Below are positions 3,863-50,413 of a DNA stretch of 64,000 nucleotides, piece after piece. Below the pieces are notes generated by a model, which searched no databases, was not told the origin of the DNA, and saw only the letters and a program-made list of their open reading frames with translations. The stretch is from Eledone cirrhosa (taxonomy: Eukaryota), in contig OZ024740.1 of assembly GCA_964016885.1 (NCBI GenBank), positions 308,078,001-308,142,000 on the forward strand, in the 5' to 3' direction. The translations under genes and the position numbers were made by a program. Position 1 is the first letter of the stretch. The number at the start of each line of letters is the position of its first letter.

Positions 3863-5510
3863 ATATATATATATATATATATAAATATATATATATATAT
3901 ATATATATATATATATATATATATATATATATATATATATATATATGTATATATATATATATGTGTATATATATATGTATATATATATGTGTGTATATAT
4001 ATATATATATATATATATATATATATATATATATATATATATATATGTGTATATATATATGTGTATATATATATGTATATATATATGTGTGTATATATAT
4101 ATATATATATATATATATATATATATATATATATATATATAAAATTACAGGAGACTGGACTGGTGAAATTCCTTAAAGGTTTATTATAAACACTATACAC
4201 ATTTCAATGACCAGGCTCTGCAAGAACCCGGTGACATCATCAGGTGATACGAAATGTATCTAATAAAGGAATATAATAATGGTAGACATAATCCAAGGGG
4301 CTGAAAAGTAGAGAGAAATGTTTAAGATATGAAGGCGGCCAGAGCCAGCAGTTGCCAGCCTGGGTGACCGCCACATTCATGGTCATTCGTGACCGAACGG
4401 GATCTTTACCCCTTTATATATATATATATATATATATATATATATATATATATATATATATATATATATATATATATATATATATATATAGATATATATA
4501 GATATAGATATATATATATATAGATATATATAGATATATATATATAGATATATAGATATATATATATAGGTATATATATATATATAAATAAACACACACA
4601 CTGGCGAATTTCGTAGAACTCTGCGGTAGTTGATGGTCAACTTCCTTCGGACCTGCGCCTGCGCAGACCGGTAGGGGTGAATTGGTGCTCACAAGGGAAC
4701 GGGCGAAGTACCCAAGAGCACACGCTTTCTCCGTTCCCACCTTTTGCAACGTTTTTTGAAATATTCACTTCTGCGTTCACAGATTGACTTTTTTAGTTTC
4801 AGAAGATTCCGTATATATATATATATATTTATATATATATATATATATATATATATATATATATATATATATATATATATATATATATATATATATATAT
4901 ATATGAAAATGTATGACCCCGGCGGCAGAGCTGAAGCCGTTTCAACGGCTATTTCTGGACTCAGAGATAGCCGTAGAAACGGCTTGAACTCTGCCGTCGG
5001 GGTCATACATTTTCCTATTACCCACACAACTACCCTAAGCATTGAGTACTCTGGTGCGTTATGGTCCATCTGGTTCCTTACCACAACTCCTTTGTTATAT
5101 ATATATATATATATATATATATATGTGTGTGTATATATATATATATATATATATATATATATATATATATATATATATATATATACAGATATATATATAT
5201 ATATATATATATATGTATATATATATATATAATATATATATATATAAATACATATATATATATATATATATGTATTTATATATATATATATATGTATATA
5301 AATACATACATATATATATATATATATATGTATTTATATATATATATATATATGTATATAAATACATACATATATATATATATAAATACATACATATATA
5401 TATATATATATATATATATATATATATATATATACATACAGACATACATACATACATACATACATACATACATACATACATATATATATACACACACACA
5501 CACACACATT
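3863..5510. repeat. Cluster of four (TA)n-based microsatellites separated by ~200-270-bp unique islands
   Basis: Direct reading. Confidence 0.98.
4191..4246 (-). ncRNA. Type I hammerhead ribozyme-like motif, medium stem II
   Basis: Minus strand CAC-CUGAUGA-UGUC-ACCGGGUUCU-UGC-AGAGCCUGGU-CAUU-GAAA-UGUGU-AUA-GUG; 10-bp stem II with two G-U pairs; stem I CAC/GUG; AAUAAA just 3'. Confidence 0.65.
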
Positions 5511-5739
5511 TAGTTGTGTGCGCACGCGAGTGTGTGCGTACGTACATATATACTTATTCCCTACATATTTGTGACCTTGTGCTAATGTGAGAAAACATTG
5601 TACTAACAGCAAGGACATAACCAGCAGCAGCTAGAACAAGTGCAATGCTAGATGCAGCAATTGCAGCAGTGCAAACTGGAAAAACCAGTAGCAAAAACAA
5701 CGAAGACAAAGCCGAAGAACAATAACTTCAATACAAACC

Positions 5740-6780
5740 ATTACTGCCACCATTACCGCCAACGTCGCCACCAGTAGAAGCAACAACACCACCACCGCCA
5801 CCGCCACTACCACAACCACTACCACAGTCACCACCACCACCACCAACAACAGCAACAAGAACAACAACAATACCACCACCACCACCAACACTACCACCAA
5901 CACCACCACCATCACCACCACCACCACCACCACCACCGTCACAACCACCTCCACCACCACCAACACCACCACCACCATCACCACCACTACCACCAACCAC
6001 CATTACCACCACCACCACCACCATCACCACCACTACCACCACCACCAACACCACCACCACCACACCACCAACACCACCATCACCACCACTACCACCACCA
6101 CCAACACCACCACCACCACACCACCAACACCACCATCACCACCACTACCACCACCATTACCACCACCACCACCATCACCACCATCACCACCACCACCACC
6201 ACCACCACCATTACCACCACCACTTGCACCATCACCACCATCACCACCACTACCACCACCATCACCACCACTACCACCACCACCACCAACACCAACACCA
6301 ACACCAACACCAACACCAACACCCCAACCACCATCACCACCACTACGACCGCCATTACCACCACCACCACCACCACCACCACCACCATCACCACCATTAC
6401 CACCACCACTTGCACCATCACCAGCATCACCACCACTACCACCACCATCACCACCACCACCACCACCACCACCACCAACACCACCACCACCACCAACACC
6501 ACCACCACCACCACCACCACCAACACCACCGCTACCAACACCAGCACCACCACCAACACCAACACCAACACCCCAACCACCACCAACACCACTACCACAG
6601 TCACACCACCACTACCACTACCACTACCACTACCACTACCACTATTTCTATATCCATGACCACTACAACCAGCAAGTACTACTACGCTATCACCGCCACC
6701 ATTACCACCACCACCACCACCACCACCACCACCACCACCACAACAACAACAACAACAACCATAACAACAGCAACAACAAC
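5740..6780. repeat. (CAC)n-type degenerate trinucleotide tract
   Basis: Direct reading. Confidence 0.98.
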
Positions 6781-6999
6781 ATTAACATCACTGTCAATAT
6801 CAACAGCATGGCCCAGTTTTCTGTGTTCACCCCGCCCCGTCACTCGCCATGTCATATGTACTTTTGGATCTATGTGCACACCTAATGTGCAGCAGCAGCG
6901 AGAACAGCGCGGGTAGGTGTTGGCGTGACAGGGTGGTGCTGCAGGCTGAGCTGCCGATGGTGGAGACAGAGCTGAGAATTAAGGTAGTATTAGTGTTCC

Positions 7000-47170: not shown

Positions 47171-47429
47171 TATAATTTAATTTTTTTGTTTCTGGTTTAC
47201 AGTTCTATCATAATGGTGTTCAATGGAGTTATTTCCCTTCAACAAAGCGTGTGTTTTTATAGTATTATTCTAAGAACTACCCATTGGCGTAAGCCGCGGC
47301 AGTAACACTGTAAAATGTTAATTGGTTTATAGCGTTTATAGCGTTTATAGCGTTTATAGCGTTGAATTCAGCACTTTTAGTGAGCATGGTGCCAGGAGAA
47401 CCAAAGAAGGTTCCGTAAATATCTGACAC

Positions 47430-47810
47430 TCTCATCAAACACCGTCCGTAGTGAGGGCAAACGCCCCAACGGAATAACTCCTTCTCATTCGAGGGAAGTA
47501 TATCCCTAATCTGGGACGTGACATGTTGAGACTCGTCCTCTTCCTCCAACCTAGGCACTTCGGCCGCAAACCTAGGCACTTCGGCCGCAAACCCAGGCAC
47601 CACCGTCGGCAATGCAAAGAAGAGGAATATACCGGGGCTTGACCAACCACTTTCTTTCGTATCGGTCGTTGTTGAGACCTCAGGTGTCTTTTGTCCCTGT
47701 TCGTAAAATCGGAAAGGCAGCAGCCAACCCTAAGAAGGAGTCCTGTGAAGTGGGATGGCTGTTTCAGCGGGTATCACTGGCCAATCTCCGCGACAACACT
47801 TTTGCTATTT
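47430..47810 (+). mobile_element. CRE-like LINE 3' fragment, old
   Basis: GKRPNG, LIWDVTC, WLFQRVSLANLRDN; internal 21-bp duplication AACCTAGGCACTTCGGCCGCA. Confidence 0.7.
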
Positions 47811-50340
47811 TGTTACTTTAACTTAAAACATATTGCTCAGGATTATAAAAATAACAGCTAAATCTCCCTCAAACCAAAATCTACGTTTTTAAAAAGGGAA
47901 TGATACATTGGGTAAAGTAGGATAGAGTTTCTGGAAGTTGTTTTTTAACAAAGACTTTAATTATAGGCCTGCTTGATCAGGACTGTCCTAAACTAAGCAA
48001 ACACAATAATATATTATATATTGCGTATACTCTATATTGATTTCTTACTAAAAAAAAACATGCCTGCGTTTCTTTCAATAAAATGCACACAAATAAAGAC
48101 AATTAATATCAAAAAGTAAATGTGAGAAACAGACCCACAATCACACACCACAGCAAGAGGCGCTGGAATTTCCTCCCAATAATTTTTCAGGCAAGCCCAC
48201 ATGCAGCAGTGCCGAGGGTTATAGTGAGGCTACATCCTGGAATAACTAACCACACTCGCAGGCATCACCTGATATGTTAGTAAGACGTGCCGCCAACAAT
48301 GGTAAGAACCTTGCTAGCAATCCAGTTCTCCTGAAAGTCTTGAACGCTACATGCTGAAAAAAAAAATAGTTTGTCAATAAATTCTGATATTTCAGAATAT
48401 TATACCGTTTGTCCTCTGATGCCGTGACCCTCACCTTCGCCGCTACATCCAGGACGTGGGAAGGAGCAAAAAAGTCGCTAATTTAGTCAAGGTCATGCAA
48501 TCAAGAAGTTGATACCGGGCATGCCCAAACATCTGCACGCCACTGATGTATACCCAGTGCCGGATTTACCATTGTGCATATGGGTGCTTAAGCACAAGGC
48601 CCGTTGGCCAGGACAACCCATCTTCCCACCAAAAAATTTTTTACGATCAATTACCCCCTTCAGGGCCCATGTAAGGGGCCTCATAACTTAATTAGCATAG
48701 GGCCTCATTTGTCCTAAATCCAGCATTGTGTACACCCCATTCAGAAATCCCATGTCACACTGACAGAAAAAAACTTAAACTTGCTTTTGAGGCAAAACAT
48801 AACAATACGATGAATATGACATGGGAGGTAACCCTTTCTGTATAAACCAGAATTAAATAACTTTTATGAAAATTACTAAGAACAAAATTGTGTTTGCATG
48901 ACTATAGAAATTATTTGAAATTAATAATGAGTTTTAATGTATTACATTTTTAATTAAATAAATCAAGGTGTTACTTTATTCTAGCGCTTATGTATTAAAC
49001 TGGTGTTATATATTATGTATCGTTCGATTCTTTTATAAACAAGCGCAGGCATACCTGTGTGGTTAAGAACTTCGCAACATGTGTGTGTAATGAAAGAAAT
49101 GCTTTCCCTTATGAACACGGCCACCAAATAAGTGACCTGCGACCTCGCAGAGAAGACAATCGATTCTCCTAGTGGTAGGATTTACGGCACCATTCCTAGG
49201 AGGGAGAAAATATTCTTGGGCTATCTGTTATCTATCAAAAATAACTAGCCGTCGTTATAAATAGGCTGTCCTGTGGTCCTAACACTGAGTAATCTGCCAC
49301 TTCGCTTGTACAACACAACCTCCCCAAATAAGAGTTTACTACTACCTCTGCTGGTACATACTGTCTGATTACAGCTTATCACTTTTTAAGGGAACATCCC
49401 ATGGTAGACAAAGAGACACTCGCACAACACAGAAGCCTTATTGAAATCTATATTCATTTGTGAACACTATAATCAAACTTTATATTTACGATTCGAAGTG
49501 ATCATATTTTTTTTTTTTTCTTTTTGCCGATAGCTTCGGAACCTTGAGCACCGGACTCTTCAGGAAGTTAGCTCAATATATATTCAACCAGAATTGTTGG
49601 TATATGTCGTGTTAGTCCTCAACTCTTAAAACTTCGCTTCATATATATATATATATATATATATATATATATATATATATATATATATATATATATATAT
49701 ATATATATATATATATATATATATATATATATATATATATATAAATATATATATATATATAAATATATATATATATATAAATATATATATATATATATAA
49801 ATAAATAAATATATATATATATATAAATATATATATATATATAAATATATATATATATATAAATATATATATATATATAAATATATATATATATATATAT
49901 ATATATATAAATATATATATATATATAAATATATATATATATATAAATATATATATATATATATATAAATATATATATATATATATATATATATATATAT
50001 ATATATATATATAAATTTATTTATATATATAAATAAATATATATATATAAATAAATATATATATATATCATAAAACATGTCTATAGAATCACCAGATAAA
50101 ATATATACCATTTCCTCTCCCAATTAGCATAATTAACCATATAAAAAATCGAATAGACCAAGCTATAAAAATAAGGCTTCTATGAAGAAATTTCCAACAA
50201 ATAACCGAAACCAGCCCTTCGCGCCGGCTGCGACGGAATATTTATCGAATATTTCGACAGCGTAATCGCCCAGATATACAGTCAATTAAACAGAATTAGG
50301 TGTAAAATAAACTAGGAGAAAAGTGAACACATTTATTTAC

Positions 50341-50413
50341 CTCGACCATAGTTTCGTCCGCATTTTAAGGTATCCGATAGCTTCGGAACCTTGAGCACCA
50401 GACTCTTCAGGAA
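50341..50413 (-). ncRNA. Type I hammerhead ribozyme-like motif with ~50-nt stem II
   Basis: UUC-CUGAAGA-GUCUG...AAGGUUCCGA-AGCUA-UCGGAUACCUU...CGGAC-GAAA-CUAUG-GUC-GAG, then AAUAAA; truncated second copy at ~49527-49582. Confidence 0.75.

Follow-up and report, generated by a model that had tools for sequence, protein, structure and literature searches.

Microsatellite-associated hammerhead motifs in Eledone cirrhosa as probable ends of Penelope-like elements, several with long stem II arms

A stretch of 64,000 nucleotides of the Eledone cirrhosa genome (assembly GCA_964016885.1, contig OZ024740.1, positions 308,078,001 to 308,142,000; here called the window, with position 1 its first letter) raises the question of what five short, otherwise unrelated islands shaped like type I hammerhead ribozymes represent. 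A preliminary description had read them as solo pseudo-long terminal repeats (pLTRs) or retrozyme-like remnants of several families, lying close to (TA)n or (CA)n tracts. We consider it probable, at about 0.85, that they are the hammerhead-bearing pLTR ends of five families of Penelope-like elements (PLEs), likely inserted at AT-rich microsatellites by the Penelope reverse transcriptase (RT)-endonuclease (EN) from RNA that had not yet cleaved itself. The position of the motifs, the anatomy of the insertions and the linkage to PLE open reading frames (ORFs) are direct observations, from which we infer a mechanism in which cleavage is a prediction. The islands are mostly explained by known biology, namely PLE pLTR hammerheads and two non-autonomous derivatives, and the earlier description of them as remnants of several families was borne out: islands 2–4 are PLE ends, while islands 1 and 5 are ORF-less tandem units.

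All five motifs were recovered where they had been described, on the minus strand, with the core position C3 at 4243, 25860, 40483, 43207 (a CCGAAGA core) and 50410, and with H17 at 4194, 25833, 40455, 43099 and 50344, respectively. A sixth motif on the same strand (C3 at 50932) was absent from the preliminary description. Our descriptor required the core, a stem II of at least 3 bp, GAAA, a self-complementary stem III, an NUH site and a stem I of at least 3 bp. It matched the window 6 times; 200 block-wise dinucleotide shuffles averaged 0.065 matches each, and 188 of them had none. Because the descriptor was composed after the five motifs were known, the fair test is in out-of-sample genome stretches, and 40 evenly spaced 10-kb stretches (400 kb) of the 3.0-Gb genome were evaluated. 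These yielded 24 matches at 23 distinct sites, compared with 0–3 (mean 0.55) in 20 shuffles. When the descriptor was run with tighter stems and no longer asked for a palindrome, stem III was still self-complementary in 10 of 20 matches, compared with 0 of 11 in 25 shuffles. The sampled rate, one site per 17 kb, extrapolates roughly to ~170,000 sites genome-wide; reported motif counts are 126,247 in axolotl and ~5,000 in mussel (PMC7229834), and 9,000 in Xenopus (PMC4209133). The same rate predicts ~3.7 sites per 64 kb, so six in the window is an ordinary density, and the earlier impression that about one per 10 kb was unusual has to be dropped. The proximity to microsatellites held up, with C3 lying 102, 51, 160, 21 and 204 bp from a (TA)n or (CA)n tract in islands 1–5. 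Among the sampled sites, 17 of 23 were within 200 bp of such a tract, against 32% of background positions, inverted pairs among these sites not being independent.

The core reads CUGANGA in five of the six motifs, island 4 being a U4C variant, and all six have GAAA and NUH. Each folds into three helices with stem I open; in the family majorities stem I has 4–9 bp, stem II is paired and stem III is self-complementary, and the palindromic positions 15.2–16.2 and loop 3 used as a criterion by Cervera (2014) were seen in all six family majorities. The stem II inserts of islands 1–5 measure 31, 13, 12, 90 and 48 nt, and that of the sixth motif 31 nt; a helix II of 4–8 bp with a short loop describes islands 2 and 3 only, and not islands 1, 4, 5 and 6. 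At the base of stem II, island 2 has a G10.1-C11.1 pair and an extra base after A9, island 5 has the pair without the extra base, and U.U occupies this place in islands 1 and 3. Both U10.1-U11.1 and U4C have been reported as variants, as has a mouse hammerhead with a very large loop (PMC3088659), and U.U at this place is common in File S2 of PMC8557442, as here. A stem III hairpin is predicted to be unstable (+2.4 to +5.8 kcal/mol) and an intermolecular stem III duplex to be stable (−1.7 to −11.2 kcal/mol, majority forms), which agrees with the dimer model of PMC4209133, in which monomers did not cleave and dimers did so weakly. The AAUAAA that had been described 3' of two cut sites is indeed present, at 4185 and 50337, and is kept in 19 of 25 island-1 copies, but we rejected it as a functional signal because only 8 of 20 copies of the island-5 family retain it. 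Separately, a CUGACGA core preceded by a GAAA box, the circularly permuted order, was observed in a common short repeat at 55170–55225 (−).

DNA searches of the genome placed each of the five islands in a different multi-copy repeat family. They returned 462–3173 first-look candidates per island, of which 40 were scored, and these figures are not copy numbers. Exact patterns matched 6005 and 6704 times (island 3), 2263 times (island-4 clade), 102 times (island 1) and 171 times (island 5), and the reversed-pattern controls 0 times. In the 20–25 best copies per family the 3' end is fixed, and there is often a longer version of it as well (with a tail of 36 bp in island 3 and ~170 bp in island 1); microsatellites flank the copies. 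An inverted partial copy on the 5' side was found in 17 of 25 copies of island 3, ~12 of 25 of island 4, 8 of 25 of island 1, 8 of 20 of island 5 and 0 of 25 of island 2. Such insertion anatomy has been described for PLEs (PMC8557442). In islands 1, 2, 4 and 5, stem I or stem III of the window copy has lost pairs that the family majority restores, and the window copy of island 3 is identical to its majority. Across 15 copies of island 1, 89% of cells were paired and 16 cells were changed on both sides (shuffle mean 6.0; reached in 0 of 500 shuffles), and the number of pairs with a two-sided change (3) was not above that of shuffles (397/500).

Linkage to parent elements was established through pattern sampling and longer stretches, a tblastn of the ±1.5 kb flanks of the best-scoring copies having returned no parents. 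The hammerhead flanks an RT and GIY-YIG ORF in both pLTRs for islands 3 and 6, and on the 3' side only for islands 2 and 4. Island 3 (40330–40529, −; predicted cut 40455/40454) is a pLTR of a two-ORF Neptune-like PLE that is intact in two of the collected loci (L331:5000–8661, +; L332:1095–4755, −). Its two overlapping frames, 476 and 775 aa from stop to stop, break at the same place in both loci, possibly through a programmed frameshift or a small intron. The second frame matches RVT_1 and GIY-YIG and carries GxKF, DKG and a CX5CxxC linker, as in Neptune-clade PLEs, from which the element differs in having two overlapping frames; C3 lies 240 nt before the first ATG, and the nearest named homologues are mostly bivalve proteins. 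The sixth motif (predicted cut 50883/50882) terminates a 5'-truncated, frameshifted Hydra-clade PLE at 50738–53583 (−), which retains the RT thumb, a CxCX5C linker, GIY-YIG and a long 3' untranslated region (UTR). Intact copies (L195, L197) have the order pLTR-ORF-pLTR, with a 750-aa ORF, a hammerhead in both repeats and C3 236 nt before the ATG, and their protein bears RWR, DKT and CxCX5C, which are marks of the Hydra clade.

The parents of the two remaining PLE ends were traced from their 3' parts. Island 2 (25741–25909, −; predicted cut 25833/25832) is a classic minimal hammerhead in what appears to be the truncated 3' pLTR of a Neptune-like PLE, with a broken GIY-YIG and a CX4CxxC linker ~0.6 kb upstream in L200. 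Island 4 (42889–43214, −; predicted cut 43099/43098) is likewise read as a truncated 3' pLTR, of a Hydra-clade PLE; its stem III is an 8-nt palindrome and its stem II has 90 nt in the window copy and 93 in the family. In L341, a Hydra-type EN is joined to this ribozyme through a 1.3-kb UTR that matches other island-4 copies. Near-full-length Hydra-clade elements (L236–L238) terminate in a sister subfamily whose arm has 104 nt. All three Hydra-clade motifs (RW[K/R], DKT, CxCX5C) were seen in L195 and L237, and the linker alone is visible in the 5'-truncated L341. Pfam gave no RT or GIY-YIG match for the PLE fragments of the window or for four intact frames (Hydra-type and the second family described below), so the identity of these proteins rests on motifs and on tblastn among proteins of the same genome. 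An ORF adjoining island 1 in L337 and an EN adjoining island 4 in L340 were rejected as parents, as they belong to other elements, and an initial Nematis-like identity for the island-4 and island-6 parents was replaced by Hydra after comparison with the published definition.

The preliminary description had proposed that the islands were mobilised by PLEs at 52.4–54.4 kb. This did not stand: none of islands 1–5 matches either element there, three of them have parents of their own elsewhere, and only the sixth motif belongs to the element at 52.4–53.6 kb. The other element, at 53678–54340 (+), is a fragment (RT thumb, linker, GIY-YIG), without pLTR and hammerhead, of a second PLE family whose intact pLTR-ORF-pLTR members (L193, L196) have their own hammerhead and frames of up to 1218 aa. 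This family is very young, with 150 of 150 scored copies at 99–100% protein identity; its frame contains a long Asn-rich insert, and its hammerhead has a stem I of only ~2 bp.

For islands 1 and 5, no ORF was found in their head-to-tail units. Island 1 (4140–4372, −; predicted cut 4194/4193) is the 3' part of a PLE-type unit of about 2 kb, which repeats head to tail at 1.9–2.1 kb in two loci (L388, L391), the longest stop-to-stop frames being 107 and 145 aa. Island 5 (50066–50700, −; predicted cut 50344/50343) is one slightly permuted unit of ~640 bp with an internal (TA)n, and a 50-bp fragment of the same family, with the 5' half of the hammerhead core, lies at 49527–49576 (−). In island 5 the 3' tail continues into the 5' start of its own unit, L199 holds 2.6 such units without an ORF, and 7 same-strand pairs 635–698 bp apart were found among the first 100 of the 171 matches. 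A look through sequencing runs for island 5 listed no RNA run that contains it.

The long stem II had been singled out as an unusual trait, and here the genome goes further than the window. The island-4 family heads a clade with arms of 83–110 nt that differ in sequence and are similar in their predicted rod fold. The 50 distinct long-arm sequences in the collected loci form three main subfamilies (n = 18, 18 and 8, with inserts of ~93, 104 and 103 nt), the remaining six falling in five small groups. Hardly any variation is seen across the clade in the core, GAAA, the 8-nt palindrome and the GUA site; stem II identity is 0.61–0.70 among the three main subfamilies and 0.46–0.74 across all groups. 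Folding of the three majority arms predicts long rods (z −4.4, −5.7 and −5.3 against mononucleotide shuffles), and single copies gave z of −4.1, −3.1, −3.3 and −1.8 against dinucleotide shuffles. Between two subfamilies, 7 of 30 predicted pairs are changed on both sides, four of them at the base of stem II; each represents one event, since two lineages are compared, and some of the predicted pairs use core bases outside the hammerhead fold. Stem I also shows a switch from G-C to A-U.

Long arms recur beyond this clade. About a dozen sequence groups with arms of 48–110 nt, one of them branched, were seen in the collected loci, only the island-4 clade being linked to an ORF, and at least 8 sites in the 400-kb sample have arms of at least 45 nt. 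The branched family (L006:2757, +; L026:172; L105:2590; L126:3016; L133:1023) has a 93–97-nt stem II with two predicted hairpins. CCGA cores with a 60–95-nt stem II were observed in further families (L029:940, −; L162:3137; L305:2800; L282:1905; L205:898), so U4C recurs outside the island-4 family. In another family (L425:8775 and 9361; L427:6401 and 6879), which occurs as opposite-strand pairs, stem II has 49 nt and stem III is GC-rich and of odd length, with four pairs around one base.

For the mechanism we draw on Poseidon of Anolis, whose protein makes a nick in AT-rich DNA and begins reverse transcription at either of two internal sites, giving fixed ends and tails; the main template is uncleaved RNA, and the hammerhead needs the protein (PMC11167929). 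Our copies resemble Poseidon in their two fixed internal 3' ends with a tail, their AT-rich targets and a hammerhead that lies near the ORF start and is intact in inserted copies, and differ in that the Poseidon ORF starts within stem II, whereas in our two intact families the ATG is 236–240 nt downstream of C3. Reverse transcription here would begin at one of two fixed internal sites, 110–340 nt 3' of the core, and would either stop early or run off the 5' end of the RNA, leaving short solo copies. The ribozyme is probably weak alone, its stem III being too short, and cutting may depend on pairing between two palindromic stems III, on binding by the PLE protein, or on both. Stem II would then be a tolerant arm that several lineages have lengthened to 45–110 nt and yet kept paired.

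The 5' ends were investigated in 30 consecutive island-3 copies picked by a pattern 3' of the ribozyme, several of which are partners in inverted pairs. The cut site is spanned by 24 of them; 11 have their end at −45 to −36, and 2 start no more than 1 nt from the site. In the 104-nt subfamily, 9 of 25 5' ends, not an unbiased sample, fall at −10 to −2 with fold-back junctions. Such piles may mark run-off where the transcript starts, immediately ahead of the ribozyme.

A number of observations weigh against the PLE reading or parts of it. In a Rfam scan of the window, which gave 89 matches at E ≤ 5, hammerhead families were absent and all six motifs were missed. The parents of islands 2 and 4 are known only as broken 3' parts; the clade names Hydra and Neptune rest on motifs, without a tree, and for islands 2 and 3 the Neptune assignment uses a linker that is common to Nematis as well. 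One same-strand pair of island-5 matches is 4.3 kb apart (G000:C2:162935020-162939370) and could mark an autonomous parent, and in an island-1 relative (L383) a Hydra-type EN end is fused to its upstream part. The fold of island 5 was no better than shuffles (z −0.65 and −0.06), and RNAalifold gave no consensus structure for 21 long-arm sequences from all subfamilies. The stem II base in the long-arm clade is mismatched or imperfect, which is expected to lower activity, and the same is expected of the U4C core of the island-4 family, where 30 upstream-anchored copies comprise 16 with CCGAAGA, 8 CpG-decay products and 6 other forms.

These last features are what would be seen if the long-arm motifs (islands 4 and 5 and their relatives) were catalytically dead relics, their core and stems kept for protein binding or as a promoter element in the pLTR, and their stem II grown by fold-back duplications. 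U4C strongly lowers activity in vitro (PMC3088659), hammerhead mutants had no effect on Poseidon insertion in vitro (PMC11167929), and fold-back junctions are common in these families. We nevertheless consider such relics unlikely, as core, GAAA, palindromic stem III and NUH stay near-invariant while stem II drops to 56–70% identity between the main subfamilies, stem I switches from G-C to A-U, four pairs at the stem II base are changed on both sides between two subfamilies, and CUGA is retained in all 26 aligned copies of two sister subfamilies. Islands 1 and 5 could be true retrozymes without long terminal repeats (non-LTR retrozymes), forming circular RNA through hammerhead cleavage and ligation and being reverse transcribed by a PLE enzyme in trans, a possibility that we take seriously while leaning away from it. 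Animal non-LTR retrozymes, proposed to be non-autonomous PLE derivatives of 51–972 bp, are likewise ORF-less tandem units with a single type I hammerhead each (PMC7229834; bioRxiv 10.64898/2026.07.22.740005), and island 5 fits with its 640 bp (bioRxiv 2026.07.22.740005), its canonical G10.1-C11.1 and the continuation of its 3' tail into its own 5' start. The 2-kb island-1 unit exceeds that size range, island 5 differs by its 48-nt stem II and internal (TA)n, and both islands show the tails and inversions seen in ordinary PLE copies; a tandem locus transcribed by read-through would leave the same DNA pattern.

Two further proposals concern the RNA 5' end. An HDV-like ribozyme (named for hepatitis delta virus) defines the 5' end of R2 RNA, and cleavage could in the same way set the 5' end of the RNA copied into full-length PLEs. 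The two island-3 copies that begin at the cut site, one of which is the upstream end of a full-length element (L478 within L331), are consistent with this. We regard it as very improbable, given that the L478 junction has microhomology and is uncertain by ~5 nt, that most island-3 copies span the cut site, and that an intact upstream hammerhead is present in other full-length elements (L193, L195, L197, L332). Long-arm 5' ends also pile up ~7 nt before the core, at a TCATT that resembles an initiator. It is conceivable on this basis, if a long shot, that long-arm hammerheads form a large, overlooked class of PLE ribozymes at the very 5' end of the transcript, whose cleavage would shed the cap and a 90–110-nt hairpin and switch the RNA between two states, reverse-transcription template when uncut and translated or degraded RNA when cut. 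Translation independent of the cap can be driven by self-cleavage, in a study where "long helix II" means 6–8 bp (PMC13725137). Finally, chance matches in AT-rich DNA are already refuted: the motif is short and the folds of islands 1, 2, 3 and 5, taken singly, are no better than shuffles, yet the excess over shuffles is 6 to 0.065 in the window and 23 to 0.55 in the 400 kb, and the motif has a fixed position in both pLTRs of intact elements.

The islands were also compared with known systems. With the minimal hammerheads of pLTRs in metazoan PLEs (Cervera and de la Pena 2014, PMC4209133) they share the type I topology, a palindromic or absent stem III, in island 2 an extra base after A9, a position in both pLTRs, mostly solo truncated copies and opposite-strand pairs 100–700 bp apart. 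With Hydra-clade PLEs (Craig et al. 2021, PMC8557442) the elements of islands 4 and 6 share RW[K/R], DKT and CxCX5C, (TA)n targets and a hammerhead near the 3' end. The difference lies in the arms: the representatives in Fig. S3 of PMC4209133 have a stem II of up to ~24 nt with CUGA or UUGA, and the Hydra-clade examples reach ~26 nt (PMC8557442), whereas here arms of 31, 48 and 83–110 nt and some CCGA cores were found, the Hydra-clade families here having arms of 31 nt and 83–110 nt and 3' UTRs of 1.3–2.3 kb. The longest arms in File S2 of PMC8557442, ~48 and ~54 nt, belong to spike-moss PLE-X elements flagged there as deviating; ours reach up to twice the greatest published length that we met. 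That source also describes a Naiad core search that allowed a 7–17-nt spacer, with eight 'half-core' cases at 35–50 nt noted. On the long-shot reading given above, long arms would evade standard descriptors and might lie behind some of these 'half-core' motifs, in Naiad PLEs that are described as having no hammerhead. Our literature searches, of incomplete coverage and not establishing absence from print, found no report of 80–110-nt arms in PLE hammerheads. As far as checked, the following are new variants: the 83–110-nt clade, the U4C subfamily within it, long arms that recur in several families, and the ORF-less unit of 2 kb. For the island-5 arm, a published one of equal length exists.

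The window holds other repeats as well. A 9.6-kb (TGGTGG)-type simple repeat array at 7000–16575 has open frames of more than 3000 codons in several phases. Adjoining island 3, a 391-aa stop-to-stop frame at 40883–42058 (−) gave no Pfam match and may be a DNA-transposon transposase remnant, which it resembles. Copies of a common interspersed repeat of ~150–200 bp, some in tandem, lie at 33923–34467, 39550–39847 and 55990–56260.

PLE hammerheads as such are known, and this genome offers them in many families, with copies of the order of 10^5 together with several intact parents. It holds a natural series, with stem II from 12 to 110 nt, CUGA against CCGA, and autonomous against ORF-less elements, in which dimer- and protein-assisted cleavage can be tested. 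If the long arms cut, eukaryotic hammerheads are more numerous than descriptor-based surveys with a stem II limit near 17–25 nt have counted, and the view that some PLE clades have none would need to be rechecked.

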